In this document: one piece after another, positions 4,387 to 64,000 of the stretch
Numbering within the stretch: position 1 is the stretch's first letter
Layout: the number at the start of each line of letters is the position of its first letter
Assembly: GCA_016182095.1 (NCBI GenBank)
Contig: JACOXY010000014.1
Location: 7,234-71,233 of the forward strand
Source: Candidatus Liptonbacteria bacterium
Lineage (GTDB): Bacteria > Patescibacteriota > Minisyncoccia > UBA6257 > JACOXY01
Reading direction: 5' to 3'
Length of the DNA: 64,000 nt
Notes under the pieces: model-generated
Database searches by the model: none
The model's input: the letters and a program-made list of their open reading frames with translations, nothing else
Told to the model about the DNA's origin: nothing
Made by a program: the position numbers and the translations under genes

Positions 4387-7300
4387 CTAAATATCTAAAT
4401 TTTTGACCCCAGCGGCGTGAGTTTGGATAAATTGTTTTCTGGGCTCAACTTCGTCGCCCATTAAAATATCAAAAAGTTTATCGGCGTCTTCGGCATCTTT
4501 TACGGTTACAACCAGCATTTTGCGGGTAGCGGGATTCATGGTGGTATCCCAAAGCTGATCCGGATTCATCTCGCCCAAACCTTTATATCGCTGAACATTA
4601 ACCGCAACTCGCCTATCCCCCGCCGCCTCTTCAGCGTCCGCTTTCTCCGCTTCTTTTAATTCATGCTTTCCGGCTCGCGCTTTGCCAAATTTCACGATGA
4701 TCGCTTCTTTTTCGTTTTCATTATATGCATACTGAACCTCTTTGCCTGATTGAATTCTAAAAAGCGGCGGCTGGGCTATGTAAAGATAGCCGCCATGAAT
4801 AACCTGCGGAAAATAACGATAGAAAAGGGTGAGTAGCAGGGTGCGAATGTGCGCCCCATCAACGTCGGCATCGGTCATAATAACAATCTTGTGGTAACGA
4901 ATTTTTTCTATATTAAAGTCCTGGGCGATGGCGGTCCCCAGAGCCATCACCAGCGCGCGGATTTCTTTATTGGCAAGCATTTTATCTATGCGCGATTTTT
5001 CTACATTCAAAATTTTCCCGCGCAAAGGAAGTATTGCCTGCGTGCGCCGATCGCGGCCCATTTTTCCGCTATTGTGCACAAACACGCCAGAAGCCAATGC
5101 GAAATTATGAGTTTTAGGAACTTCAAGGTCATAAACATCAACTTTTTCATTAAGCCAAAGGATTTCTTTAATTTTGTGGTTATGACGCTCTACTGCTTCA
5201 ACTAAATTTCTTGCGTCGCTTCCAAAAAATCTTTTAACAATAGTTTCGGCGCGTAGCAAGTTTTTGTCATTAGTTGCTTTTCTTAGATTCTCATACTCAC
5301 TAAAGTCAATTTCGCCTTTAGTTTCGTAGATACCGCGCAAAGCTTGCAGGGCTTTCTGCTTATAGGTTTCGTTATAAGCAAGTTTTCTCCTTAAACGAAA
5401 TTCGGGCGTCCATTGATCTTTGGTTTTGCCGCTGCGCCATTTTTTAAGCTTCTCATCATTCCATTGTATTTTAGCGAATTCGGAGTAAGCAAGACGTTTT
5501 TCTGGATGGTTTTCAAAATAAGCTCGCGTGCGATTCGCTTGATCGCGCCGATTTTTTTCTTCTGACCAATATTCTTTTTGCGCTCTGCTTAAAATGCTCG
5601 CGCTCTGTGCCCGATAGGCCGCATTATTGTGATAAAAATCCAAAAATTTATCAGTCATAAATTGCTTATAATCTTTGTCTTGCCACTGTTTTTGGGCACG
5701 CTCACTTAGCATCTTTCTCATTTGTGGAGTAGACATGCTGGCTCTAATTTTATTCCTGTATTCAGGTGTCTGCCTTATTAGACGAAGTTTTTCTAAAACT
5801 TGAGGGGATCGCAAAAAAATATCCGCCATTTTACGATGCAGGCCTAAATGATCTTCGCTTGAAAGTCGTGTAATATTTTCCGGGTTATTGTTTAGTTTAT
5901 TGAAATCTATATGGTGTCTGTGCGCGCCAATGCTTTTTTCGTAAATATTATTTTTCAGATTATAGTCGTCAGATAGCATGTGGGTAAAAATCCATTTCTG
6001 GTTCTGCGAATTAAAAACCATTTCGTATCCGTCAATTGTAATGCGACCGCCAATTTTGGATATTTTTTTGTATAACGGCATTAGCGAGTCTTGCGATAAA
6101 AGATCCCTAGCTTTTTTATAAGAACCATTAAGAAGCATGAATTCGTGGTCTGGCGTACAAATAATTTCCTCGCCATTATCAAGCACAACTTTAACAACTT
6201 CTGTATTCTTTTTAGTAATCCTAGGATAAACTATTTTCTGTATTGCAACTGCCCCATCTTTATCAATGGTGTAGCAATAGTTTTGTATGCCTTTTTTATC
6301 CTCATGGACCAAATCCTTAAAAGACAAATTGCGTCCATCAGCCAGTGAAACTTTTGTGTTGCCCGAAAAACATCCTCCGGCTGAATCGCCTTCCACTATA
6401 AACAATTCCGATTCGGCCGGGTCTCGCGATGAGCAATCGGCTAATTTCCCTGGCAAGGTTAAGCCCTCAAGAATTCCTTTTCGCAAAACGGTGTCTTTCG
6501 CGGCCTTAGCGGCTTTGCGAGCTTTAGCCGCAAGCAAACACTTTTCAACCATTCTCCGCGCGTCAGCCGGATGTTTCTCTAAAAATTCTTTCAAAGACTC
6601 GCTTACCACCGATTCAACAACCGTTCTCGCCTCCGGAGTCCCAAGGCGGGCTTTGGTTTGCCCTTCAAATTGCGGTTGGGAAAGTTTAACGGAAATGACC
6701 GCCACCAAACCTTCGCGCACGTCATCGCCCGTCAAATTGTCGTCTTTTTCCTTTAAGTAACCCTCGGTTCGCGCGTAAGAATTGATGGCGCGGCTCAAAG
6801 CCGATTTAAACCCGGTTGAGTGCATGCCGCCATCGGAAGTATAGATGTTGTTGGCAAAACTTAACTCTTTTGATTCAATATCCTCGGTATAAGTAAAAGC
6901 TACTTCTACTTCTATGTTATTTTCGCTTTTTTGGATGTAAAAAGGATCGTCCTGCAGAACTTTCGCGGCAGGAGTAAGGTGCCGCAAAAACGAAAGCAGT
7001 CCGCCGTCAAATTTAAGGGCGTAATATTTTGGCGCGTCAGTCCTTAAATCCCAAAAGTCAATTCTAACTCCCTTTGTTAAAAACGCCTGCTGGCGCAAGT
7101 GGTCCAAAATATACTTCCAATCAAATTTAATCTCTCCGCCACCGGTTGAAAAAATCTCCGGGTCTGGCTCAAAAATAACTTTAGTGCCAATTTGATCGCA
7201 TTTACCGACCCTCTTCACGACTTTCTTCGCCTTGCCTCGTTCATATTCTTGCTCATAAAGATAGCCATCCCGACAAACTTCGGCTTTAAGATAAATTGAG

Positions 7301-7716
7301 AGCGCGTTAACCACAGAAACCCCAACGCCATGCAAACCACCGGAAACTTTATAAGAATCACCGCCAAATTTGCCCCCGGCGTGAAGCGTGGTCATAACTG
7401 TTTCCAGGGCGGATTTTTTCGTCTGCTTATGAATATCAACCGGGATGCCGCGCCCATTATCGGTAACCGCCACCCTATTCCCCGGCAAAAGCTCAACTTT
7501 GATAGCAGTGGCATACCCAGCCATCGCCTCATCAATAGAATTATCAACCACTTCCCAAATCAGGTGGTGCAAGCCGGCGCTGTCGGTTGTGCCAATATAC
7601 ATCCCGGGGCGCTTTCTTACCGGCTCAAGACCCTCCAAAACATAGATGTCCTTTGCTTCATAGCTCGCGTGCTTTGACGCGTCTGGAGTTTTTTTAGTTT
7701 CTTTTACTTTTGCCAT
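4387..7716 (-). CDS. gyrB: DNA gyrase subunit B, interrupted by an in-frame intein
   Basis: 1109-aa ORF; GHKL ATPase motifs, TOPRIM EGDSAGG and a C-terminal GyrB tail; host protein is about 675 aa once the 434-aa intein is removed. Confidence 0.95.
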   Translation of the reverse strand: MAKVKETKKTPDASKHASYEAKDIYVLEGLEPVRKRPGMYIGTTDSAGLHHLIWEVVDNSIDEAMAGYATAIKVELLPGNRVAVTDNGRGIPVDIHKQTKKSALETVMTTLHAGGKFGGDSYKVSGGLHGVGVSVVNALSIYLKAEVCRDGYLYEQEYERGKAKKVVKRVGKCDQIGTKVIFEPDPEIFSTGGGEIKFDWKYILDHLRQQAFLTKGVRIDFWDLRTDAPKYYALKFDGGLLSFLRHLTPAAKVLQDDPFYIQKSENNIEVEVAFTYTEDIESKELSFANNIYTSDGGMHSTGFKSALSRAINSYARTEGYLKEKDDNLTGDDVREGLVAVISVKLSQPQFEGQTKARLGTPEARTVVESVVSESLKEFLEKHPADARRMVEKCLLAAKARKAAKAAKDTVLRKGILEGLTLPGKLADCSSRDPAESELFIVEGDSAGGCFSGNTKVSLADGRNLSFKDLVHEDKKGIQNYCYTIDKDGAVAIQKIVYPRITKKNTEVVKVVLDNGEEIICTPDHEFMLLNGSYKKARDLLSQDSLMPLYKKISKIGGRITIDGYEMVFNSQNQKWIFTHMLSDDYNLKNNIYEKSIGAHRHHIDFNKLNNNPENITRLSSEDHLGLHRKMADIFLRSPQVLEKLRLIRQTPEYRNKIRASMSTPQMRKMLSERAQKQWQDKDYKQFMTDKFLDFYHNNAAYRAQSASILSRAQKEYWSEEKNRRDQANRTRAYFENHPEKRLAYSEFAKIQWNDEKLKKWRSGKTKDQWTPEFRLRRKLAYNETYKQKALQALRGIYETKGEIDFSEYENLRKATNDKNLLRAETIVKRFFGSDARNLVEAVERHNHKIKEILWLNEKVDVYDLEVPKTHNFALASGVFVHNSGKMGRDRRTQAILPLRGKILNVEKSRIDKMLANKEIRALVMALGTAIAQDFNIEKIRYHKIVIMTDADVDGAHIRTLLLTLFYRYFPQVIHGGYLYIAQPPLFRIQSGKEVQYAYNENEKEAIIVKFGKARAGKHELKEAEKADAEEAAGDRRVAVNVQRYKGLGEMNPDQLWDTTMNPATRKMLVVTVKDAEDADKLFDILMGDEVEPRKQFIQTHAAGVKNLDI
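5071..6372 (-). other. intein (Hint splicing domain with an HNH endonuclease-like domain and a basic repeat-rich region) in gyrB, inserted immediately after EGDSAGG
   Basis: starts with Cys (CFSGNTKVSLADG...TPDHEF), ends ...VYDLEVPKTHNFALASGVFVHN followed by Ser+1; internal HRHHIDFNKLNNNPENITRLSSEDH is an HNH motif; residues 449-882 of the ORF. Confidence 0.8.
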
Positions 7717-7907
7717 TTTTAAATGAAGAGCGTAGCGATGAATCTACAAAAATGAGCACCCCGCTCTAATTTTGCTATCACCATATCTTAAAATTCAGTT
7801 GGAACTATTTATATGATATTTGGTGCGACCTGCGCGTGCCGAATAGGCACATCCCGCTAATGGGCGAAGCGGGTCGCCATGGCATATTCCGCAAAATTAG
7901 AGCGGGG
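7717..7907. promoter_or_regulatory. family-2 element upstream of gyrB: conserved leader (AAGAGCGTAGCGAT...GAGCACCCCGCTCTAATTTTGC) whose far partner GCAAAATTAGAGCGGGG lies about 115 bp away; the spacer carries GC-rich local hairpins
   Basis: 17-bp perfect inverted repeat at 7759-7775 and 7891-7907; the leader is shared with the parB and rpsR upstream regions. Confidence 0.45.
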
Positions 7908-8242
7908 TAGCCATCTCAACAAAATAATGCTCCCCCCAGGAGCTAGATTTTCTTAATATTTTATACTTACAGTTTAGCATAAAACGAGTCTAAAAACAAC
8001 AGAAATTGGACTTAAAAAGCAACGCTACCCCGCACTAAATTCCGCACATTATTTGCTCTAAACTGCTTTTATTATCGTCACGGAAACCGCCTCAACTCCG
8101 GGTAGTGAATTGAATGAGTTTCGGCTTTGGCAAGCGCTCTTTGTTCGCTAACATAGAGAATTAGCGCGGGGTTCTGTTGCTTGTAGCTTTTCGAACTGCG
8201 CGCTTCGCGCTTGTTCTTAAAGACAAGCAACGAAAAAGAGGG

Positions 8243-9439: not shown

Positions 9440-9811
9440 TTATCTTCCAAGTGTCGCCCTGATCTTTGCCACCACCTCATTCAAATTCAGCGTCGCTTTT
9501 ACCAAATAATACGCCGGTTCATATTTAATTACATCCGCCATCACCTTGTCATCAGGAATTTGATTGGTTAAAACCACTATCGGAACTTTTTTACCCAACG
9601 GATCAGCCCGAAGTTTTTCCATAACTTTAATGCCGCTCATCTTTGGCATTAGAAGGTCTAAAAGTATCATATCCGGCTTTTGGCTTAAGGCAGCAGTAAG
9701 GCCCTCTTCGCCATCTTTCGCCTCAAGGACTTCAAATCCTTCGTTTAATAATGTGTCCACTAACGCGGCGCGTAGCGGAGTTTCGTCTTCAACAATAAGA
9801 ATTTTTGCCAT
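9440..9811 (-). CDS. response regulator, receiver domain only (CheY-like)
   Basis: DETP...D(54)LLMP...K motif layout; 123 aa with no output domain. Confidence 0.85.
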   Translation of the reverse strand: MAKILIVEDETPLRAALVDTLLNEGFEVLEAKDGEEGLTAALSQKPDMILLDLLMPKMSGIKVMEKLRADPLGKKVPIVVLTNQIPDDKVMADVIKYEPAYYLVKATLNLNEVVAKIRATLGR

Positions 9812-9935
9812 CCCTCACTCAAGAAAGAGCATTATCCGCCCTCTCTTTTTTTAATTAATTTATCAACTTAATATTACTCGACTAAAAACATTTTATTCTA
9901 GAGACAGAAACCCAAACTCTTTCTTGAGTGAGGGA
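9811..9935. promoter_or_regulatory. family-1 long-range inverted repeat (TCCCTCACTCAAGAAAGAG, about 87 bp, CTCTTTCTTGAGTGAGGGA) between the histidine kinase stop and the response regulator start
   Basis: perfect 19-bp arms at 9811-9829 and 9917-9935; the proximal arm overlaps the regulator ATG and the distal arm abuts the kinase stop. Confidence 0.5.
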
Positions 9936-11198
9936 TTATAGCTCTGCTGTAGTTGCGATGACCTTTGTACCCGCTCTGGGCTTCATGCCCGTCAGTGGTA
10001 TTGTAACATAAAAAGCAGTGCCTCGCTCGTCCGTAGCTTCACGCGAAGGAGAGCCATGCCCACCCACAGACTCAAACCAAATTTTCCCGCCGGCCGCTTC
10101 CAGGGTTGCCTTAACAATATATAATCCCAAACCGTTGCCTTCAATCTCATTGCTTTTAACATTGTCTGCCCGAAACATTTTGGTAAAAATTTGCGATTTT
10201 TGATCTTCCGGTATTCCATAGCCGGTATCCGTTACTTTAATAAGCGCGTTCTCGCCATCCTTAATAATACTCAAGCTTATGCTGCCTCCCTCCGGGGTAT
10301 ACTTAATGGCATTTGATAATAAATTCTGAAAAACTATCCAGACTATTTTGGAATCGGCATTTATGGAAACCAGAGTTTCGTCATAGCGCTTTTCCAGTTT
10401 CAGTTTTTTCTCCATGAGCTTTCCTGCGAGCTCACCCAAAACGCCCTCGGCGATTCCCGCTAAACTCACTGGCTCCGGGTTAATTGAAAAAGTTCCCATT
10501 TCAACCCGTGAAACATTCAGTAGGGCGTTTACCAAATTTATGACTCTTTTTATGCTGTAGCCAATCTCATTTAAATACTGTATCTGCTTGTGGTTTAGCT
10601 CTCCCACTCTACCCGAAAGAAGCATCTGCGCGTACCAATTGATAACGGAAAGCGGGGTGTTCAACTGATGCGAAACCAAGGACACAAACTCACCGCGCAC
10701 CCTATCCGACTCCTTCCTTAGGGTAATATCCTGATGCAAGGAGCCATAAAACAATATCTCCCCGCCCTTGGACTTAATCGGAAAAACAGAAAGATTGGTT
10801 TCATATTCAGTGCCATCTTTGCGGCGATTAATAATTTCTTCCGTCGTCAAAGACTCGCCGTTCTTCAAGGAGTCCCACATTTTTTTATAGGCGAGTTGGG
10901 GAGTTTTGGAACTGCGCAGAAGGCGGGGGTTCTTGCCCTTGATATCAATCAAACTATAGCCGGTAACCCTTTCCCAGGTAGGATTTACATAAATAATATT
11001 GCCATCCAAATCAGTGATGAGAATTGCCTCCGTTGAGGCATCCACAATGGATTGAAAAATGTGCACCTCGCCGCTAACCGCCCTTGGGTCCGCTTTTAAC
11101 TCACTTAACTCCGCGGAGATTTTTTCTTTTTCGGCAAGCGCGCTCTCTAAGGCGGCTTTAAGTTTTTCTACTTCTTGGTTTGATGAAAATCCTAACAT
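9936..11198 (-). CDS. sensor histidine kinase with a PAS domain
   Basis: PAS region, H-box HQLNTPLSVI, N/G boxes (...NAIKYTPEGG...GTGLGL); upstream partner of the response regulator. Confidence 0.85.
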   Translation of the reverse strand: MLGFSSNQEVEKLKAALESALAEKEKISAELSELKADPRAVSGEVHIFQSIVDASTEAILITDLDGNIIYVNPTWERVTGYSLIDIKGKNPRLLRSSKTPQLAYKKMWDSLKNGESLTTEEIINRRKDGTEYETNLSVFPIKSKGGEILFYGSLHQDITLRKESDRVRGEFVSLVSHQLNTPLSVINWYAQMLLSGRVGELNHKQIQYLNEIGYSIKRVINLVNALLNVSRVEMGTFSINPEPVSLAGIAEGVLGELAGKLMEKKLKLEKRYDETLVSINADSKIVWIVFQNLLSNAIKYTPEGGSISLSIIKDGENALIKVTDTGYGIPEDQKSQIFTKMFRADNVKSNEIEGNGLGLYIVKATLEAAGGKIWFESVGGHGSPSREATDERGTAFYVTIPLTGMKPRAGTKVIATTAEL

Positions 11199-11234: not shown

Positions 11235-11447
11235 TTTATTCTGGTCGCGGTTTGCAATTTTTGCACGGCCGGTAACCGCAGGCAATCGCATCATCCCAAT
11301 TATGGAAAAATACCCTGTTTTCTTTTTTCATTCTCATGCCAGACTTACAACTAAGTAGCCCAAAAATTTTTCCGGGTGCCCAGCCAGCGTATTTCCCTTT
11401 TTTCTGCTTAATATAAATCCATCGGGCGTTAAAATTCTATAAGCCAT
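11235..11447 (-). pseudogene. small Ada-like zinc-binding domain gene, split by a one-nucleotide frame shift at an A5T5 tract
   Basis: frame A starts ATG after an A10G9 tract (MAYRILTPDGFILSRKKGN...); frame B continues ...GKIFGLLSCKSGMRMKKENRVFFHNWDDAIACGYRPCKNCKP, matching the Ada N-terminal TGIFCRPSC...RENV.FF...AGFRPCKRC pattern; the first Cys is replaced. Confidence 0.4.
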
Positions 11448-11744
11448 CAAATCCCCCCCCCTTTTTTTTTCCTTACTTTATTTTTCAGCACAGCTTACGG
11501 GAAGCGCCCCCTGAAGCTTGCGCGCTTCTTTGCGCACCGATTCTTCAGTTGGGTTAGCAAGGCGGCGCAGCCACATATCATCTAAAATCTCTTCCGGACA
11601 ATCGGGGAATTCTTCTTTCATGATACGGGCTATCTCGTTTCTTTCCATTTTCTTCTCCACCTAAAAACGCTAAACCCAAAATATCACACCTAACCCAAAA
11701 ATACAATCATTTGTACTGGTTCATATGATATAGGCCACAATCAG

Positions 11745-12015
11745 AAACAGCCCTGCTTTTGTACGCAAACACGCGTCACATTTCCCAGCGAGAAATGCGC
11801 GCTTGCCCTCGGACTCGCTCGCCATGCCACTTTATCTAAGCAGAATGTCTCGGAGACAGATTTAGCTTGGTTTCCGCAGGAATAAATCTGCCGAGAGCCC
11901 AAGCCCCCGACTTTCCGCCGGAGAAAGGAGAGGGGCGGTTCTGCGTGATAAAGCGGCATGGCACCAGTGCCCGCTCGTCCTCCGCACAGTTTGCTTAACA
12001 AAAGCAGGGCTGTTT
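11745..12015 (-). ncRNA. candidate structured ncRNA (about 270 nt, GC-rich, closed by an 18-bp perfect terminal helix); class unresolved (RNase P-like GGAAAGUCGGGG motif noted)
   Basis: sharp local GC elevation with no credible ORF; AAACAGCCCTGCTTTTGT / ACAAAAGCAGGGCTGTTT terminal inverted repeat; several internal perfect hairpins. Confidence 0.4.
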
Positions 12016-12051
12016 TTTAGCTGGTCTCTATGTATCTGAACCCGGAAATAA

Positions 12052-12420
12052 TTAAGCAACCTCCCACGGAAATGCGACCCAATCGTTCTTTTTCTCTTTT
12101 AGCCAGATACTGGGAACAAACTGGCTTTGTTTGTGATAATAGAGCGTGGCAATAAAATAACCTTGATCGGCGAAGTTTTTCAGAGTTTTCCCGGTATCGG
12201 CGATGTCGTCAACTATTAAAGTAGATTTCCCGCCTGGTGTTGCGACAAGCGGCAGGTCCAGCGCATGAGAAAGAGAAACCGCGATGGGTAATCCACCGCG
12301 CGCCGGACCCCACACGCTGTCAAATTTTACTCCGCTCTTTTTTATGAGATTTGCCAATTTTTTCGCATCTTCTCCAAATTCCGACCAGGAGTATAGTTCT
12401 TTTTTATTATTTGTAGTCAT
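12052..12420 (-). CDS. purine/pyrimidine phosphoribosyltransferase (type I PRTase)
   Basis: PRPP-binding motif LIVDDIADTGKTL; 122 aa. Confidence 0.7.
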   Translation of the reverse strand: MTTNNKKELYSWSEFGEDAKKLANLIKKSGVKFDSVWGPARGGLPIAVSLSHALDLPLVATPGGKSTLIVDDIADTGKTLKNFADQGYFIATLYYHKQSQFVPSIWLKEKKNDWVAFPWEVA

Positions 12421-23166: not shown

Positions 23167-24501
23167 ATGATTACACAAAAGAAAAAAGAAATATTAGATT
23201 TCGTAAAAAGTTATTCTAAAAAGAGAGGGTATTCTCCTACCATTCCTGAAATCGCAACAAAAATTGGACGGGCTTTTGGAACCATTCACGAACATCTTCG
23301 GGGGCTAGAGGAAGATGGCTTTATCCAACTTAACAAAAATCAACGCCGAGGAATAGCGATTCTTGAGTCAACCCCGATGATTAAAATTCCACTACTTGGC
23401 ACCATAGCCGCCGGCTCACCTTTAACACTCTTTGATGTGCCACAAGAAACAATCGCTGTTCCAAAAAGCAAGGTTCACTCATCTTCGGAAGTATATGCGC
23501 TTCGTGTTGTTGGGAACAGCATGATTGATGAAAATATAAATGATGGAGATATTGTTTTAGTGCACCACCAAAAAACTGCAGAAAACGGGCAGAAGGTTGT
23601 CGCGCTTATTGACAACCACGAAGCAACGCTAAAGAAATTCTACAAGGAGAGGGGGCAAATCCGCTTACAGCCAGCAAACAAAAATATGGAGCCGCTTATT
23701 TTTAGAAATGGCCGAGATGTTTCTATACAGGGAGTAATCATTGATGTTATAAGAGAAGAAACACCGGCATCTATTTCTTTGCCAGAAGTAAAAACAGAAA
23801 TTAAACAATATAAAAAACTGCCACTTAATCAAATTATTCACGGAGATGCCGTGGAGGGGTTAAAGAAACTACCAGACGACTCTATTGATTTAGTAGTCAC
23901 CGATCCCCCATATGGAATCAGTAGAGAGCTTAATTGCAAAGGTCAAAGATTGGGAACAACGGCAAAACTGAATTTTAATTTTGGTGAGTGGGATACCTTT
24001 AATAAAGATTGGTTTGAGATTGCGTTGAAAAAAACTAGAGGCTGGATGATGACCTTTTGTGCAAAAAAAGACGTAGGCTTTTTTATTGATGGTTTAGAAA
24101 AAAATGGATTTATTGCAATTGACGTGTTGGTTTGGCAGAAACCCGACCCCATTCCTCTAAACGCGAAATCCAGATTTCTTAATGCATGGGAGGCGGTAGT
24201 GATAGGCAAAAAGCCAGGCGCCATTTGGAATAGCAAATATGAACACAACATCATTAAAGTTCAGGCCCCCAAAGGGAAGAGCAGGATTCATCCCACACAG
24301 AAACCTGTTGAACTTATAAAAAAATTAATCAATTTAACCACCAAAGAGGGTGATGTTGTATTAGACCCGTTTATGGGTAGTGGAACAACAGCCGTAGCCT
24401 GTTTAGAAACGAAAAGAAACTACGTTGGTTTTGAAATATCAGAGGAGTATAGGAACCAATCCCTAAAAAGAATAAAAGCACTGCCAAAAGAGTTATTTTA
24501 A
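23167..24501 (+). CDS. fusion protein: complete LexA-type repressor (HTH plus S24 self-cleaving peptidase) joined to a beta-class N6-adenine/N4-cytosine DNA methyltransferase
   Basis: residues 1-198 align with LexA (cleavage site TIAAG|SP, Ser in VVGNSM, Lys in ATLKKF); residues about 205-444 carry DPPY (DLVVTDPPYGI) followed by FMGSGTTAVA. Confidence 0.8.
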   Translation: MITQKKKEILDFVKSYSKKRGYSPTIPEIATKIGRAFGTIHEHLRGLEEDGFIQLNKNQRRGIAILESTPMIKIPLLGTIAAGSPLTLFDVPQETIAVPKSKVHSSSEVYALRVVGNSMIDENINDGDIVLVHHQKTAENGQKVVALIDNHEATLKKFYKERGQIRLQPANKNMEPLIFRNGRDVSIQGVIIDVIREETPASISLPEVKTEIKQYKKLPLNQIIHGDAVEGLKKLPDDSIDLVVTDPPYGISRELNCKGQRLGTTAKLNFNFGEWDTFNKDWFEIALKKTRGWMMTFCAKKDVGFFIDGLEKNGFIAIDVLVWQKPDPIPLNAKSRFLNAWEAVVIGKKPGAIWNSKYEHNIIKVQAPKGKSRIHPTQKPVELIKKLINLTTKEGDVVLDPFMGSGTTAVACLETKRNYVGFEISEEYRNQSLKRIKALPKELF

Positions 24502-27867: not shown

Positions 27868-28045
27868 TTTTTAATTTATAATTTTTGGTTTATAATAGAA
27901 TTATGCCCAGTAATACAACTTACAGTATACTTGGCAAATTGTAACAAATCATTAGTAATGAACTTGAATAAATATTTATCAACTGATAAAGCTAGTTGAT
28001 TTTTATTTTTTAATAAAAATCACGCTGTAAGTTGATATACTAGGT

Positions 28046-28816
28046 ATGGCGCCTATAGAAAAGGAGGGTTATTGGACTCCATTAGAAAAACAGGTTAGAG
28101 ACTATATATTCCTGCCAATTACTTGGCCATTTAAGTTTATTCCGCATGCGGCCAACATTTTGACGATGATCGGATTCGGCATACTTTTTTATGCCATTTA
28201 CGATTTCTATATATATGAAAGCTATTCCCGCCAGATTTGGCTTTTAACCGCCGCCTGGCTCACGGATTTATTTGATGGACCGATAGCCAGAAACAACAAT
28301 GATGTAACCGCCTTCGGCACAGCCGCCGACCATATCCGCGACTACTTCATAAGTTTCTGGATGCTCACCCTCGCCTTCTTTATAACGGCAGATTCTCCGC
28401 AGTTTTGGCCGGTTTACTGGATTCTTGTTTTTACGATCTTGGGGCTTTTGGGCGTCATAGCGGGCACGTTGCTCTTCCAGAAAGAAAAACGCGGCGAGCG
28501 GCCATGGGGCGGATATCTGGATTTTTTCCGGGAATTTTTATTGAAAGATCTGGTCACGTCGGTAACGGCAAGAATACACACGGTAATCATGGCAATCGGC
28601 GGAGTTTTCTATATCGCGGGTGCCGCCTTGGGAGATGTTTACGCGAAAACAGGGGTGGTTATATTGATAATACAGCTTTTTGTTTTGGGCTTTTATAACC
28701 ACGAAATCCATGAGGCGCGCTACGAAGACAGGGCGCATAAAATAAGAAATATTCTCCAGGAAAAAATCCGCGAGTTGGAAGAAAAACTTAAAAAACACGT
28801 AAAAGTTGACGGCTAA
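28046..28816 (+). CDS. CDP-alcohol phosphatidyltransferase family protein with a C-terminal extension
   Basis: D(x2)DG(x2)AR...G(x3)D(x3)D motif: DLFDGPIARNNNDVTAFGTAADHIRD. Confidence 0.7.
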   Translation: MAPIEKEGYWTPLEKQVRDYIFLPITWPFKFIPHAANILTMIGFGILFYAIYDFYIYESYSRQIWLLTAAWLTDLFDGPIARNNNDVTAFGTAADHIRDYFISFWMLTLAFFITADSPQFWPVYWILVFTILGLLGVIAGTLLFQKEKRGERPWGGYLDFFREFLLKDLVTSVTARIHTVIMAIGGVFYIAGAALGDVYAKTGVVILIIQLFVLGFYNHEIHEARYEDRAHKIRNILQEKIRELEEKLKKHVKVDG

Positions 28817-30090: not shown

Positions 30091-30203
30091 CAGAACCCTG
30101 ACAAAACCTAACCGCTCGGGCGGCGCGGAATTCCCCCCTTGAACCCCCCTTCCGCGCCGCCCTCGCGGGAAGTTCGTTTTTGCCCGCTTCGCGGGCACGC
30201 CGC
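30091..30203. repeat. left arm of an about 113-bp near-perfect inverted repeat bounding the R-M/ImmA island
   Basis: differs from the reverse complement of 33153-33265 at about 3 positions; GC-rich with internal palindromes. Confidence 0.85.
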
Positions 30204-33152: not shown

Positions 33153-33265
33153 GCGGCGCGCCCGCGAAGCGGGCAAAAACGAACTTCCCGCGAGGGCGGC
33201 GCGGAAGGGGGGTTTAAGGGGGGAATTCCGCGCCGCCCGAGCGGTTAGGTTTCGTCAGGGTTCTG
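33153..33265. repeat. right arm of the about 113-bp inverted repeat bounding the R-M/ImmA island
   Basis: reverse complement of 30091-30203 with about 3 mismatches. Confidence 0.85.
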
Positions 33266-33494: not shown

Positions 33495-33543
33495 CGTAGG
33501 AAATTGACTGAAACTAACGCGCCGCACTCGTCCCGAATAAAGC

Positions 33544-33632
33544 GGTGGGGTGGCTGAGCCCGGTTGAAGGCGCCACACTCGAAATGTGGTATGCTCGAAA
33601 GGGCATCGTGAGTTCAAATCTCACCCCCACCG
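33544..33632 (+). tRNA. tRNA-Ser (anticodon CGA), long variable arm
   Basis: GGUGGGG acceptor, anticodon stem CCACA/UGUGG with loop CUCGAAA, variable hairpin UAUGCUCGAAAGGGCAUC, T-arm GUGAG-UUCAAAU-CUCAC, 3' CCCCACC-G. Confidence 0.85.
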
Positions 33633-33652
33633 CTTTGCGCGGGATAAAAAAT

Positions 33653-42015: not shown

Positions 42016-42158
42016 GCCATTTTTACCCAAGAGCGAAGCGATTGGCCGTAAAACCAAGCACCCCGCCCTCTAAGCAATTGATTAATAAAAAATATTTGAT
42101 TTAAATTTTAAACTAAATCCCGCAACACCTCAACAGTCTATGCGCATAGAGGGCGGGG
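42016..42158. promoter_or_regulatory. family-2 element between parA and parB: conserved leader (CCCAAGAGCGAAGCGATTGG...AAAACCAAGCACCCCGCCCTCTAAGCA), its far partner TAGAGGGCGGGG, and an about 75-bp AT-rich spacer
   Basis: 12-bp perfect inverted repeat at 42061-42072 and 42147-42158; the leader is about 85% identical to the rpsR upstream region. Confidence 0.45.
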
Positions 42159-42178
42159 TTAATTTGTTCGGCCAAGCC

Positions 42179-42982
42179 TCACAAATTAAAGTTCCCAAAT
42201 TGGGGCGACATTTGGAATTGATCTTCCTGTCTTATAATTTCTTTCGCGAGCTTGTTATAGGCATAGGCGCCTACTGAATTTGGAGCGTGTAATATAACCG
42301 GCTTTGCGAAACTTGGGGCTTCCGCCAAAGCTATGGACTTGGGTATTTCGGTATTGTAAACGTGATGCGGGAAATGCCTCCTTAGCTCCCTGCCAACCTC
42401 CCTGGATAATCGTTCGCGCTTATCATACATCGTAAGCACCGCTCCTGCAACCATGAGCGGATGGCGCAGATTGTCCCTTACTAAATTTATGGTGTGTAAA
42501 AGCTGGCCCAGTCCTTCCAGACTATAATACTCAGCCTGCACCGGGATCAAGACCTCGTCAGCCGCTATAAGACCATTTACGGTAAGCAGACTTAAAGACG
42601 GCGGCAAGTCTATTAAAATATAGTCGTAATTGTGTCTTATGCCAGTAATAAATTTTCGCAAACAGTGTTCTCTCTCCGGCATCTCAACTAATTCAATAAG
42701 AGCGCCTGCAAGATGAGGCCCAGCTGGGACATACGACAAGCCATAAAGCGCGGAGTTCTTGATTAGAGCGTGCGGTTCGCTAATGCCAAAAATACCATGA
42801 TAAATGGTGTGCTCCTCTCCCATCACATTGTGCCCTAATGCAGAACTCGCATTCCCCTGCGGATCAAAATCAATGACTAATGTGGAACGCCCGTGAGACG
42901 CAAGATAGCCGCCCAAATTTACGGCACTAGTGGTTTTTCCAACTCCCCCCTTAGCGTTACAAATTGCTATAACTCTGGCCAT
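42179..42982 (-). CDS. parA: chromosome partitioning ATPase ParA/Soj
   Basis: deviant Walker A KGGVGKTT; 267 aa. Confidence 0.9.
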   Translation of the reverse strand: MARVIAICNAKGGVGKTTSAVNLGGYLASHGRSTLVIDFDPQGNASSALGHNVMGEEHTIYHGIFGISEPHALIKNSALYGLSYVPAGPHLAGALIELVEMPEREHCLRKFITGIRHNYDYILIDLPPSLSLLTVNGLIAADEVLIPVQAEYYSLEGLGQLLHTINLVRDNLRHPLMVAGAVLTMYDKRERLSREVGRELRRHFPHHVYNTEIPKSIALAEAPSFAKPVILHAPNSVGAYAYNKLAKEIIRQEDQFQMSPQFGNFNL

Positions 42983-43270
42983 CCCTCACTCTTCAAGCAT
43001 TGATTCTCTCAACCGACGCTTGAGAGAGTAGAAACCTTTAGCAAAACGCTTAAGTTGCTTCTCGCGATTAAGCGCATCTGTTTTAGACCTATAACTTTCA
43101 AAATATATTAATGTCATTGGAAGCAGATGTTTAGTAGATTGAACCAGCCTTTTACTATGTTTTACTAATCTTTCTCTAAGATTTGGCGCAAAGCCTATAT
43201 AGAAACTTTTATCCTTCTTTGATTGTAATACATAAACATAAAACATAGTATATGCTTGAAGAGTGAGGGA
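42982..43270. promoter_or_regulatory. family-1 long-range inverted repeat (TCCCTCACTCTTCAAGCAT ... ATGCTTGAAGAGTGAGGGA) whose 250-bp loop contains a GIY-YIG gene; the proximal arm abuts the parA ATG
   Basis: perfect 19-bp arms at 42982-43000 and 43252-43270. Confidence 0.5.
42986..43246 (-). CDS. small GIY-YIG nuclease-superfamily protein
   Basis: MFYVYVLQSKKDKSFYIGFAPNLRERLVKH matches the GIY-YIG core; start taken at Met13 so the distal repeat arm lies in its leader. Confidence 0.7.
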   Translation of the reverse strand: MFYVYVLQSKKDKSFYIGFAPNLRERLVKHSKRLVQSTKHLLPMTLIYFESYRSKTDALNREKQLKRFAKGFYSLKRRLRESMLEE

Positions 43271-46151: not shown

Positions 46152-46295
46152 GCCGTTTTTGCCCAAGAGCAAAGCGATTGGATGCAAAACCGAGCACCCC
46201 GCTCTCTAAGCATATAAATAATGGTTAAAATTTAATTTATAATTTGATTATTTTTAGACACGAAACCTTATAATTCCAGCACATAGAGAGCGGGG
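46152..46295. promoter_or_regulatory. family-2 element upstream of rpsR: conserved leader (CCCAAGAGCAAAGCGATTGG...AAAACCGAGCACCCCGCTCTCTAAGCA), its far partner TAGAGAGCGGGG, and an AT-rich spacer
   Basis: 12-bp perfect inverted repeat at 46197-46208 and 46284-46295; about 65 bp shared with the parB upstream region. Confidence 0.45.
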
Positions 46296-54705: not shown

Positions 54706-54830
54706 GCCCAGTAACACTACTTCAGTGTTACCCGACATATAAGCAAACTAATTGTCATAAAACAATGTCAAAATGCCAAACTAATAATTTATGCTTCGGA
54801 AATAAATTATGCTGAAGTAGTGTTACTGGG
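54706..54830. repeat. 20-bp perfect inverted repeat (GCCCAGTAACACTACTTCAG / CTGAAGTAGTGTTACTGGGC) separated by an about 85-bp AT-rich spacer, 170-300 bp upstream of rpoB; the left arm also folds locally
   Basis: seen in the sequence; same promoter-flanking inverted-repeat architecture as other loci in this window. Confidence 0.6.
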
Positions 54831-54859
54831 CAAGTCTTTGTAATATAATGCTTTCGCAC

Positions 54860-55796: not shown

Positions 55797-55971
55797 TTTA
55801 TAGACCTTTTGTACAATTCCTTTTCTACTGCAATTTCCATATTTTGGCTACGGCTTTGTAAAAATTTCTTGAAATATATTCTGTATATTCCTTCAAAATT
55901 TTTACTTCGCCTCGCTCAAGATCTGAAAATTTCGTTACGAAAAGAATTGTACAAAAGGTCTTTCTATATTA

Positions 55972-57955: not shown

Positions 57956-58091
57956 GCAATATATAAATTATCCTTGCTTCTCCTAAAAAATGAATAAGAA
58001 AATGCCGAACTCAACCTGGTTTTGCTAAAGCAAAACTGCGGGATTCAAACAGCGGCATTTTCTTATTTTTTACTCGAAGCTTCGGTAATTT
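57956..58091. repeat. left arm of an about 135-bp near-perfect inverted repeat; each arm is a nested palindrome resembling a bidirectional terminator
   Basis: reverse complement of 59503-59638 with about 2 mismatches; inner 15-bp stem AATAAGAAAATGCCG/CGGCATTTTCTTATT with flanking A- and T-runs. Confidence 0.85.
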
Positions 58092-59502
58092 ATATATCTT
58101 GCTACGCGATGCTTATTCAAAAAGATTTTATGCTCTTACATATATTAAGATAATAGCAGAAAAAATAAAATAGAAAAAGCCCCGCCAACTTGTGACGAGG
58201 CGGCCCCGCGCAGTTTATCAATGCCCGGGGTGGTGGCTGGGGGTGCCGTAGCACCTAGGGCCTGCCACCTCGGTCAGAGACTGGATCCTTGAAGCGCGTC
58301 CCCTTGTGGGGCCGCCTTCAAGTTGTGAGCCACTGGCTCACAAACAAGCGCGATCCAATCTCCTGGAAAATTTTAAGAACTCGCGGAGGGAGATGTCGGC
58401 CTATCCCGTGGCTCGGTTGCCGGCTGGTCGGGCCAGGCAGAACGGCAGCTTGCGCTGCGGCCTTGTTTCCGTCGTTGCCCAGCGCCCATTCCCCGACAGT
58501 TTACCGGACATCTCCTCCCGCGAAATCTGGGCTCGCAGCTTCGCACAATTGACAACTGACACTTAACAATTGACTTGTGCAGACAAGCGCAAATTTCGTG
58601 GGATAAGTTTATTTTATTTCCTGAGCCTGTCGAAGGAATACAATACTGTAGTGCTTCGACTACGCTCAGCAACTAAATTTTCACCCCCCCAAGTAAATGT
58701 TTTTCACTATCTGCCTTTCCTGAAATATCTTACTTGAATGAAACGATTGACTGAAAAACACTTACTTGGTACATTACAGCTACGCCCAGAACTTCGTCGG
58801 GCCCGCGCGCACGACATACGGTGCGTTAGCCGGCCACCTCTGGACGTAGGACTTGCGGCGACCTCGAGATCACCGCGCACCAATGAAAAGAACTTGCGAA
58901 GCTCGGAAGAACAACTTCCGTCGTCTTACGGTTCGGAAACCCCGAACGCTGCAGCGGTAACAGCTCCCACGGCCAGCGCCAAGCACCAGCATCCGAGCTC
59001 CCGGCGAATATTGGAGGTGTGCTGCCCGGACCAGCACACCCCCGCTGCTTTAGCCAATCTCCAGGAAGTGTCTCGGGCCTCCCAAGATTGGATTTCAACA
59101 TTATAGCATACTATCCAGAATAATGCAAGTAGTCAAAAAAACAGCGTGAAATAAGGGTTTTATAAGCAAGTGAGAAGCCCAACTTTGTGACATCCGATGT
59201 CCAGAAACAAAAGACATTAATATTCGGGACATCGGAAGTCAATGCAAAGTCCAACTTTGCGACATCCGATATCTAAAGATGTGGCTGCGGAAAGAAGCCC
59301 AACTTTGTGACTTCCGATGTCCAGAAACAAAAAACTTCAACCCTTCGACTTCGCTCAGGGCAGGCATTTAGGACTTCGGATGTAAGGGGTTATCCTACTA
59401 TATACTGCCCCACTTGGCGCCAAAAAGCCACACGAGGGGTAAGACCTAATATTTGGAAAATGGCGCAACATTTTTTTATGAGCATCACACAGCAATATCT
59501 AT
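58092..59502. other. about 1.4-kb GC-rich non-coding structured element of unknown class, bounded by the 135-bp inverted repeats
   Basis: no ORF longer than 122 codons despite high GC; overlapping short ORFs in all frames; many perfect local and long-range helices; three about 42-bp direct repeats at 59174-59335. Confidence 0.4.
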
Positions 59503-59638
59503 AAATTATCGAAGCTTCGAGTAAAAAATAAGAAAATGCCGCTGTCTGAATCCCGCAGTTTTGCTTTAGCAAAACCAGGTTGAGTTCGGCATTTTCTTAT
59601 TCATTTTTTAGGAGAAGCAAGGATAATTTATATATTGC
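59503..59638. repeat. right arm of the about 135-bp inverted repeat
   Basis: see the left arm. Confidence 0.85.
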
Positions 59639-62057: not shown

Positions 62058-63302
62058 CTAATGGGCAATTTTCACAACCCGAACTTTCTGAATCTGGTGG
62101 CCAGACACTTCTTCCACTTGAAATTTAAGCCCATTTAACTCAAAAGCTTCGCCAAGTTCCGGGGCGTGATTAAGTTTTTCCGTAAGAAATCCGTGTAATG
62201 TTTTCTTGGACTTGATCTCGGTATTGAAAAAATGGTTAATAGAGGCGATTTTTGTCTGGCCATGAGCAATAATCTCATCTTTGCTCACGCGCTTGATAAT
62301 CTCGGGCACAATATCTTTTTCGTCAATAATTTCTCCGACCAATTCCTCCAATACGTCTTCAAGGCCAACCACGCCCACAATATTGCCATACTCACTAACT
62401 ACAACCGCTAAATGCAAACGCTTCTCCTGAAAATCGTGTATGAGATCATCCGCAAGCCGGGTATCGGGAACAAAGAATGCCTCTTTGGCGTAACTCAAAA
62501 CTTTTTTATCAAACTCATCGCTCGCGAGGGCGCGCAAAAGATCTCTCTGGTGGACGATGCCCACGATATTATCTTTATTTCCCTGATACACTGGGAGGCG
62601 CGAATGCTTGGCGTTTTTAATAAATTCAGCGGCATCTTTTATGGTAACCCCGCCGTCCAAAAAAGTAACAAAGGGCCGCGGAGTCATCATGTCTCCGGCG
62701 GTAATGTCATTCAATTTAAATACGCGCTCAATCATGGCGGCTTCGCCGGCCCGGATCACGCCCTCTTTCACGCCCGCCTGGGTTAAGAGCGCGATTTCTT
62801 CTTCGGAGGTCGTAAATGGCGAGGCACCGCTCGTAAACGGCTTTGAAATAATTTCTAAAATTACGACCAGTGGAGAAATAAGAATAGTAAGCCAAGAAAG
62901 TGGAACCGCGGCTAACGGAAAAATAACAGGGCTCCAGCGCTCACCGATATTTTTAGGAAGAATCTCGGCAAGAGTAATCATAAAAAATGTCAGTATCGCC
63001 GAAAAAATCCCGATGCCTAAATCAGAAAAAAGCTCCGCGGCAAGCGTTCCCATGAAAATACTCCCCACAGTACTTATAGTCGAAGAAAGCACCACAAGCG
63101 TCGCGATGGTTTTTAACGGCTTTTCGCGCAATTCCAATGCCTTTCGCACCCCAAATTTACCTTGCGCAACATAGACACGCGCCTTAGAAATGGGGTAAGA
63201 AAATAGCGCCGCCTCAATCAAAGAAAGCGTCCCGCCTATTGTTATTAATCCTAAAGCCAAAATGACTAAAGCTGCCATACCCGGTATATCAACTTTCAGC
63301 AT
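62058..63302 (-). CDS. CNNM/CorC-HlyC family transporter (DUF21 TM domain, tandem CBS, CorC_HlyC C-terminal domain)
   Basis: four N-terminal TM helices, CBS pair, C-terminal transporter-associated domain. Confidence 0.8.
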   Translation of the reverse strand: MLKVDIPGMAALVILALGLITIGGTLSLIEAALFSYPISKARVYVAQGKFGVRKALELREKPLKTIATLVVLSSTISTVGSIFMGTLAAELFSDLGIGIFSAILTFFMITLAEILPKNIGERWSPVIFPLAAVPLSWLTILISPLVVILEIISKPFTSGASPFTTSEEEIALLTQAGVKEGVIRAGEAAMIERVFKLNDITAGDMMTPRPFVTFLDGGVTIKDAAEFIKNAKHSRLPVYQGNKDNIVGIVHQRDLLRALASDEFDKKVLSYAKEAFFVPDTRLADDLIHDFQEKRLHLAVVVSEYGNIVGVVGLEDVLEELVGEIIDEKDIVPEIIKRVSKDEIIAHGQTKIASINHFFNTEIKSKKTLHGFLTEKLNHAPELGEAFELNGLKFQVEEVSGHQIQKVRVVKIAH

Positions 63303-64000
63303 GATTTATTTTTGCAAAATAAATCATTAAATCTGGTGGTTGATAATATTTATGATAATTTAATTTATTTTAAACTTTTTCGCATTTTGCCAAAAAACTG
63401 AAAGTTGTATTACTGGGCATAGTTTTAGCATACGGAAATTATGGGAAAATAACAAAGCTACGCACCAGAACAAGTTCGGTGCGTTACTTCACTTCGTTTA
63501 GCTTTCTCTCACAAATTAAAAAAGTTTGTTCTACTTTATCAAGTTCTTCGGAACTGAAGGCGCTACGGTGCCGGCCCCTAACCCACTGCGGTTGGGGGTT
63601 TTTTATTTTAAACAAAAATCCGCCTCTCGGCGAAATTTTTCTGCTCTTCTTTGTGCTGGCGTACCCTACTTTCCCAGTGATAGTATCATCAGGCTTAGAC
63701 GCTTTCACTTCTCTGTTCGGAATGGGAAGAGGTGGTGCACATCCAAGTAAAACACCAGCACAAAAAAGACCAGATTAAATTTTAATATAGAAATTAGCAG
63801 ATATATGCCTTCCTTAGGAAGGGCACAGTCAGCATTGGGATGGTCGGCACCCATTAGTACCCTTTGGCTCGGCACTCTCTACACAAATATCGCGAAACAT
63901 TGGAAGCTCAAAATTATGCCGGAGCTCGCGGCGCGACGACGAAAGTGTACTCGAAGAGTACATTGAGGAGGAGCAACAAAGAGATCATCTAATTTTGAGT

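Follow-up and report, generated by a model that had tools for sequence, protein, structure and literature searches.

A GC-rich palindromic element closed by a perfect 18-bp inverted repeat in an intergenic spacer of Candidatus Liptonbacteria: a possible MITE-like insertion

MITEs and other palindromic intergenic repeats (Correia, ERIC/IRU, RUP and BOX-type) can serve as terminators or as RNase III substrates. The element described here, found in a spacer of a Candidatus Liptonbacteria chromosome, resembles this group in being short (the MITE range is 100–300 bp), non-coding, intergenic and bounded by terminal inverted repeats, in having a transcript that would form a long hairpin, and in its presence or absence between close relatives. 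It differs from them in occurring as one copy, with no target-site duplication seen and no parent IS or transposase known, and in being far more GC-rich than its host, with side hairpins that are not mirrored. Intrinsic terminators, including the bidirectional ones, are the second group to be compared. As in these, the base of the stem (CAGCCCUGC/GCAGGGCUG) is preceded by an A-tract, followed by a U-tract and located directly past a gene, and a near-identical stem with its T-run is a plain hairpin terminator in unrelated phage contigs. In contrast to them, the "loop" of the element is a 235-nt structured domain instead of 3–8 nt, and a good U-tract is found on the plus strand alone, the adjacent genes being on the minus strand.

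Two groups of structured RNAs are also to be considered. The large orphan RNAs raiA, ROOL, GOLLD and OLE share with the element a GC-rich, structured, intergenic and non-coding nature in an AT-rich genome, but they are defined by many covarying homologues, while the element has none and matches no such model. The smallest bacterial RNase P RNAs are similar in size to the element. The likeness to RNase P RNA (RF00010/RF00011) consists of a size near the lower limit of the bacterial molecules and of a short string similar to conserved region I (CR-I; GGAAAGUC.GGG); the element differs in having no covariance-model match, no P4 pairing in the canonical order and no equivalents of CR-II to CR-V, and in being absent from the syntenic site of the nearest relative.

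The window, i.e., the whole 64 kb stretch of DNA that was analysed, is ordinary chromosome of an uncultured member of the Parcubacteria (CPR), coding among others for NusG, L11, GyrB with an intein, ParA/ParB, SSB, S6, RelA/SpoT, FtsW and BipA. The intein-containing GyrB (1109 aa, PF14890) is encoded at 4387–7716 on the minus strand, and a single plus-strand ORF at 23167–24501 joins a LexA-like DNA-binding and S24 peptidase module to an N6/N4 DNA methylase domain. The spacer between two genes of this window holds a self-pairing, GC-rich, non-coding stretch of 271 nt (11745–12015), with the following features at and around it:

11478–11648, minus strand: small ORF of 56 aa, hypothetical protein HYT12_03500 (P0121, 100% identity), downstream of the element on this strand
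11678–11706, minus strand: promoter-like TTGTAT-17 nt-TATTTT of the small ORF
11741–12001, minus strand: 86-aa ORF spanning the element, with a TTG start and without a ribosome-binding site
11745–11762, no strand assigned: left arm of the perfect 18-bp inverted repeat (closing helix), AAACAGCCCTGCTTTTGT
11763–11997, no strand assigned: core of 235 nt, 57% GC, structured by itself
11773–11802, no strand assigned: local 13-bp side hairpin (minus strand GCGCGCAUUUCUCGCUGGGAAAUGUGACGC), with no mirror copy in the other half
11821–11836, no strand assigned: second helix (16 bp, 94% complementary), 5' arm in plus coordinates
11895–11919, minus strand: RNase P CR-I-like string (GGCGGAAAGUCGGGGGCUUGGGCUC), placed by predicted folds in apical local hairpins
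11947–11962, no strand assigned: second helix (16 bp, 94% complementary), 3' arm
11998–12015, no strand assigned: right arm of the perfect 18-bp inverted repeat, ACAAAAGCAGGGCTGTTT, followed on the plus strand by three more T (12016–12018)
12052–12420, minus strand: phosphoribosyltransferase (PRT) gene (PF00156, E 4e-12), with its stop codon 36 nt from the element

The two 18-nt arms are 100% complementary (18/18), and no other match to the arm pattern was found in the window at up to three mismatches, 0.05 matches being expected by chance. At the right end, which reads GGGCTGTTTTTTAG on the plus strand, the terminal TTT of the arm and the three following nucleotides make up a run of six T (12013–12018), while the minus strand continues after its 3' arm with GGGCTGTTTCTGATT. 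The GC content is 55.4% for the element and 43.3% for the window, and places the element at the 97.9th percentile of 271-nt windows. The perfect terminal helix and the GC island described in an earlier, sequence-only reading of this DNA were thus confirmed, as were the PRT gene and the small ORF as its flanks; the ACAAAAG motif, said to precede the 3' helix strand, is actually part of it. The limits of the element were set at about 11743–12017 (~275 bp), because pairing outside the 18-bp helix is not above chance alone: a weak outer pairing extends to about 11706/12054, with z of −0.3 and −1.5, which is why we gave up the idea of an older outer hairpin with the element in its loop.

On the minus strand, the order is PRT, element, small ORF, a frameshifted Ada_Zn_binding gene, a PAS histidine kinase (HK) and a response regulator (RR), with the E1/E2 2-oxoacid dehydrogenase pair on the plus strand, divergent from PRT. 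The PRT protein matches, at 100% identity, a protein encoded on a 97-kb contig of a Ca. Liptonbacteria MAG, the same MAG to which HYT12_03500 belongs. The frameshift splits the Ada_Zn_binding gene (11236–11450, minus strand) into two overlapping ORFs of 38 and 33 aa; it is also present in the corresponding contig of the Logan assembly, as would be the case for a pseudogene or a shared sequencing error, while the gene is intact in the closest relative, L081 (CAZTTN010000036.1). In the latter, whose PRT is 81% identical, the order E2-E1-PRT-small ORF-Ada-HK is the same, with the homologue of the small ORF at 4550–4744, but the PRT stop is separated from the small-ORF start by 82 nt versus 391 nt in the window. 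These 82 nt align to the promoter-proximal part of the window spacer only, and the whole element is missing. The sequence-only reading had counted a homologous region without the terminal helix as evidence against it, and in L081 not only the helix but the entire element is lacking. The absence of the element from this syntenic site, together with the short spacers (35–146 nt) found after the PRT gene in nine of nine relatives (L081 and eight more), suggests, as the simplest reading, that the element was gained in the lineage of the window, with L081 as the one truly syntenic relative and loss in L081 as the alternative.

The promoter-like motif of the small ORF is conserved as TTGYAY-17 nt-TATTTT, being TTGCAC-17 nt-TATTTT in L081. 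Since it sits between the element and the ORF, the element does not belong to the 5' UTR or leader of the latter; on the minus strand it would form the 3' UTR of the PRT transcript.

Folding of a 281-nt stretch gave a minimum free energy (MFE) of −133.2 kcal/mol (z −7.05) for the minus and of −126.9 kcal/mol (z −7.92) for the plus strand, with 0 of 200 shuffles folding as well in either case. The 235-nt core retains structure without the closing helix (z −4.6 on the plus and −3.65 on the minus strand). The predicted fold starts with the 18-bp closing helix, continues with a short helix and the 13-bp side hairpin, then with the 16-bp helix, and ends in an apical multiloop with three small hairpins; the second helix and the several local hairpins agree with the interior hairpins reported in the sequence-only reading. 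A C/U-rich stretch of the minus strand, CCGCCCCUCUCCUUU, remains unpaired in the MFE fold. Outside the two long helices, one half of the element is only 56% identical to the other and aligns to it with large gaps. This low identity and the unmirrored side hairpin indicate that the element is not a simple inverted duplication. As for its orientation, the single mismatch of the 16-bp helix reads G-U on the minus but A-C on the plus strand, and overall there are nine G-U pairs on the minus versus six on the plus strand, so that the G-U versus A-C asymmetry points to neither strand. Both strands pair equally well, as a DNA palindrome would.

Copies and homologues of the element were searched for in several collections. 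No relative of it turned up elsewhere in the 64 kb window, where the element is single-copy. Exact look-ups of the flanking proteins, made to reach other strains, returned only short Logan contigs identical to the window. Nothing was retrieved by nhmmer and blastn against 80 PRT loci from GTDB genomes (species representatives), nor by sensitive ("distant") blastn against phage and plasmid collections. Exact matches in IMG/VR to the repeat arm and to three motifs of the interior were due to chance or belonged to unrelated terminators, with no extended similarity. An exact 18-mer scan of JGI metagenomes returned 85 hits, each covering one arm and located in coding regions without relation to the element or in a single family of phage terminators. 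The latter recurs in unrelated contigs of gut phages as a hairpin terminator, AACAGCCCTGC-loop-GCAGGGCTGTTTTTTT; the stem sequence of the element is, by comparison with it, terminator-like, yet the two are not homologous. A single-sequence covariance model (R1), run against the window and 14 CPR loci, found only the element itself. The element is thus an orphan in all the collections searched, with no homologue that could show covariation.

The 64 kb contain other intergenic segments bounded by long perfect inverted repeats. When perfect pairs are counted whose arms measure 12 nt or more and are 20–450 nt apart, the window has 28 versus 1.65 in shuffles; with arms of 17 nt or more and 60–450 nt between them, it has 7 versus 0.44 for every 64 kb of other prokaryotic loci (876 kb in total), an enrichment of about 16-fold. 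Most pairs fall in three families, designated A (ACCCCGCYCTCTA), B (ATCCCTCACTC) and C (GCCCAGTAAYAC), whose cassettes carry perfect inverted repeats of 12–20 nt:

7758–7908, 42060–42159 and 46197–46295: family A cassettes
2859–2988, 9810–9936 and 42982–43270: family B cassettes
27903–28047, 54706–54831 and 63277–63420: family C cassettes

In at least six of the nine cassettes the gene-proximal arm spans the ribosome-binding site and ends past the second base of the start codon (..GGGAT/G, ..GGTAT/G, ..GGGGT/G, the slash marking the end of the arm); the exceptions are 7758–7908 and 54706–54831, whose arms are upstream of the predicted start. The distal arm is a perfect complement located 75–250 nt upstream, and the interiors are AT-rich and unstructured. 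The genes preceded by cassettes are rplK, a response regulator, parA, parB, gyrB, a CDP-alcohol phosphatidyltransferase and a CNNM transporter. Such putative devices may shield translation from transcripts that read through, or else tie it to the gene located upstream. The element at 11745–12015 differs from all three families, its arms not being a ribosome-binding site and its interior being GC-rich and structured.

These families turn over. The HK-RR spacer holds a family B cassette in the window (9810–9936) versus a family C cassette in L081 (6260–6415), and the family C members are similar over their full length and occur in both orientations; together, these observations indicate that short palindromic elements have been gained and replaced in the lineage, with cassettes being exchanged between close relatives. 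Two-nucleotide direct repeats (AT/AT, AA/AA), which could be target-site duplications, lie alongside family C copies. Two Logan contigs from two sequencing runs, L182 and L181, end at 9837 and 9910, respectively, 7–8 nt inside the interior of the 9810–9936 cassette and from opposite sides; population variation, inversion of the interior or low coverage of this stretch of 28% GC could account for the breaks.

Further palindromic features were observed. The cassette at 7758–7908 has an 18-bp perfect closing helix and a 115-nt core (47% GC) with GC-rich hairpins, lies 42 nt upstream of the predicted gyrB start and gives a z of about −6 as a whole and of about −1.3 for the core alone, with no Rfam match. 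At 55802–55961, a 160-nt AT-rich palindrome forming a full rod, with 18-bp perfect ends and a core z of −5 to −6.7, takes up almost all of the minus-strand spacer that separates ftsW from the small ORF after it, with 10 nt remaining towards ftsW and 5 nt at the opposite end. A 57-nt GC-rich hairpin (CCGCTCGGGCGGCGCGGAA...) occurs as two inverted copies (30112–30168 and 33188–33244) that flank a 3-kb block with an IrrE-like M78 peptidase and a DNA methylase.

The reading that we favour, and hold tentatively, is that the element is a lineage-specific, palindromic, MITE-like insertion acting as a hairpin stop or insulator. Several observations lead to its insertion being proposed. It is absent in L081, and the spacers of the nine relatives are short; its terminal repeats match at 18 of 18 positions while the halves are otherwise 56% alike; no strand bias is seen in either z or G-U pairs; its GC content is 55% versus 43%, with no Rfam match and no promoter passing the scan; and other intergenic elements bounded by inverted repeats, whose families turn over, share the genome. 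The hallmarks of MITEs found here are the terminal inverted repeats, the presence or absence at orthologous sites and the lack of coding capacity; mobility itself is an inference. A second copy was not found in the window or in any collection searched, which argues against this reading, although the single copy was counted in a window covering about 6–8% of a genome that we assume, for a CPR bacterium, to be of ~1 Mb. The flanks read ...aatcag before and tttagc... after the element, with no target-site duplication visible and with A/T end runs that are themselves complementary, and no transposase or recombinase was found among the 47 window proteins scanned. A self-structured core with unmirrored side hairpins also counts against a MITE-like origin, fitting an evolved RNA better than a plain MITE.

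According to this MITE-like reading, about 275 bp of palindromic DNA, either MITE-like or a foreign fragment with terminal inverted repeats, would have been inserted into the spacer that separates the PRT gene from the next promoter. Transcription of either strand would yield an RNA collapsing into a rod of about 95 bp, with at its base the G+C-rich 18-bp helix between an A-tract and a U-tract (A3...U6 on the plus and A6...U3CU on the minus strand). The rod would stop transcription, or insulate it, past the PRT gene and ahead of the promoter that belongs to the small ORF, in the style of an intrinsic terminator, and its double-stranded stem would be long enough for RNase III-type enzymes to process. 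Effects of this kind, if any, would have come with the insertion as a by-product and would not be an ancestral function. The stop or insulator part is proposed because the closing helix and the T6 run are terminator-like and a near-identical stem with a T-run terminates in phage contigs. Indeed, a G+C-rich stem followed by a U-run is present, with GCAGGGCUG and UUUUUU on the plus strand and merely UUUCU on the minus strand. Against a terminator role, the 235-nt "loop" is far beyond the usual range of intrinsic terminators, and a terminator scan did not report the element, whose arms are 235 nt apart instead of closing a loop of a few nucleotides.

The main rival reading, somewhat less likely in our view, is that of a lineage-specific gene for a stand-alone small RNA belonging to a new class, with the closing helix as a processing or stabilising stem. 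The conceivable transcript would be a plus-strand RNA of about 285 nt, running from a weak AATACA-18 nt-TATGAT promoter (−10 box at 11724–11729) to the U6 past the closing helix. The GC island in an AT-rich genome, the folding of the core without the closing helix, the multi-branched layout with unmirrored side hairpins, the U6 after the closing helix on the plus strand and the C/U-rich stretch left unpaired on the minus strand are all consistent with such a gene. The 5S rRNA gene (63633–63781) and the tRNA-Ser(CGA) gene (33539–33636) also bear flanking inverted repeats, the former of 30 nt (80% complementary) and the latter of 12 nt, perfect and extending the acceptor stem; these look like processing stems, and stable RNAs in the window therefore carry extended stems. 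On the other hand, no homologue and hence no covariation was found, the element is absent from the syntenic site of L081, its pairing shows no strand asymmetry and its covariance model matches nothing in the 14 CPR loci. The promoter scan around the element found no site over threshold on either strand, and the plus-strand candidate fits 8 of 12 positions by eye.

A new class of RNA is a possible reading, but one for which no homologue, covariation, strand asymmetry or promoter was found as positive support. That the element is the founding member of a class of structured small RNAs of ~275 nt, restricted to a Liptonbacteria lineage and perhaps one of several here, we consider improbable. In that case, a set of structured RNAs missing from the catalogues would exist in CPR bacteria, to which the likewise Rfam-unmatched 58170–58560 (minus strand) and 7758–7908 would belong. 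The first of these is a better candidate for a stand-alone ncRNA than 11745–12015. It lies within 58098–59496, the GC-richest part of the window (up to 63%), and consists of a 390-nt stretch with a z of −4.6 that ends with a GC stem and U5; no Rfam match was found at E ≤ 10, nor any Pfam domain in the ORFs that overlap it. The 1.4-kb segment 58098–59496 is bracketed by 139-nt inverted copies (57959–58097 and 59497–59635).

It is very unlikely that the element is an inverton, i.e., that a site-specific recombinase flips the 235-bp segment between the 18-bp inverted repeats. Perfect inverted repeats of 18–20 bp around intergenic segments of 75–250 bp, an inverton-type layout, are strongly enriched in the window; nevertheless, no promoter-like site was found within 11763–11997, the 47 proteins scanned include no recombinase and the Logan contig L181, an assembled contig, runs unbroken through the element in the same orientation. 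The interior is, moreover, itself palindromic, so that flipping would change little. A replication origin was also considered and rejected, the cumulative GC skew having no turning point at the element.

Even less credit can be given to a non-biological origin by assembly chimera, or to a real protein gene of 86 or 72 aa. The 86-aa ORF covers the element and is the only long ORF across it, but with its TTG start and no ribosome-binding site it appears in neither the NCBI nor the Logan gene calls. A word-index search among 5.8 billion proteins gave no candidate homologue, and phmmer against 1.84 billion representatives retrieved, as sole match, a tandem-repeat junk ORF. With no real homologue for this ORF, the statement of the sequence-only reading that no credible ORF is present holds, and its general description of a highly structured, non-coding, GC-rich element with an 18-bp closing helix is supported. 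As for a chimera, the palindrome is imperfect and its sequence unique, unlike amplification chimeras, and the Logan assembly of run SRR12113424, made with an independent assembler, gives exactly the same sequence, base for base, over 2397 nt spanning the element, making an artefact of one assembler unlikely.

Least probable of all, to the point of being nearly negligible, is a divergent housekeeping RNA (reduced RNase P RNA, long SRP RNA, 6S RNA or tmRNA, taken jointly), a reading rejected because no Rfam or ARAGORN match was obtained, the CR-I-like string is locally paired and no 6S bubble is formed. All 4227 Rfam families were searched with cmscan, using the gathering score over the window, E ≤ 10 on 11600–12150 and E ≤ 5 window-wide. 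On both strands of 11600–12150 no family was found at the gathering score or at E ≤ 10, except for a spurious lncRNA match with E = 7.5, even though filters are laxest on a query of 551 nt. In the entire 64 kb window RNase P, SRP, 6S and tmRNA were all absent at E ≤ 5, even below threshold; the cmscan positives were five tRNAs and the 5S rRNA, none of them at the element, and ARAGORN likewise found five tRNAs and no tmRNA. The comparison with the RNaseP_bact_a/b, SRP, 6S and tmRNA models had been suggested by the sequence-only reading, which had also taken the lack of an Rfam hit as evidence against its proposal; it gave zero matches on both strands.

The reduced RNase P RNA, one of the identities put forward in that reading, was motivated by GGCGGAAAGUCGGGGGCUUGGGCUC, which shows merely a 15–25 nt resemblance to RNase P CR-I, and the size of the element would agree with it. 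Yet there was no RNaseP_bact_a/b match (E ≤ 10), the string is in a local hairpin, and no CCGACUU-type complement, i.e., no downstream P4 partner, is located 3' of it; CCGCUU sits 5', in the non-canonical order already pointed out from the letters alone. The long SRP RNA, also put forward, fails in that neither bacterial SRP model (RF00169/RF01854), including the domain IV loops and the GNRA tetraloop, matches the locus. As for 6S RNA (RF00013), no model match was found, and what lies at the centre of the rod is a multiloop with three hairpins and not a large open bubble; for tmRNA, both ARAGORN and cmscan were negative. As for the conservation expected of an essential gene, the element is missing at the syntenic site of L081 beside a flanking protein with 81% identity, within the 6.5 kb of that genome compared, and a copy might lie elsewhere in it. 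A search of the literature on RNase P in Parcubacteria and on inverted repeats in CPR retrieved nothing relevant. A tempting wrong annotation, that of a "reduced RNase P" in a CPR genome, is thus removed.

As a lone orphan, the element matters little. Its interest comes from a small, reduced genome that is rich in long-range perfect inverted repeats around intergenic regions, several of which pair the ribosome-binding site and start codon of housekeeping genes (rplK, parA, parB, gyrB and a response regulator gene) with a perfect complement located 75–250 nt upstream. If this pattern is genome-wide, the rod at 11745–12015 would be another product of the turnover of palindromic intergenic DNA, and the inverted repeats would point to a general, unstudied layer of operon punctuation or translational insulation in CPR bacteria.
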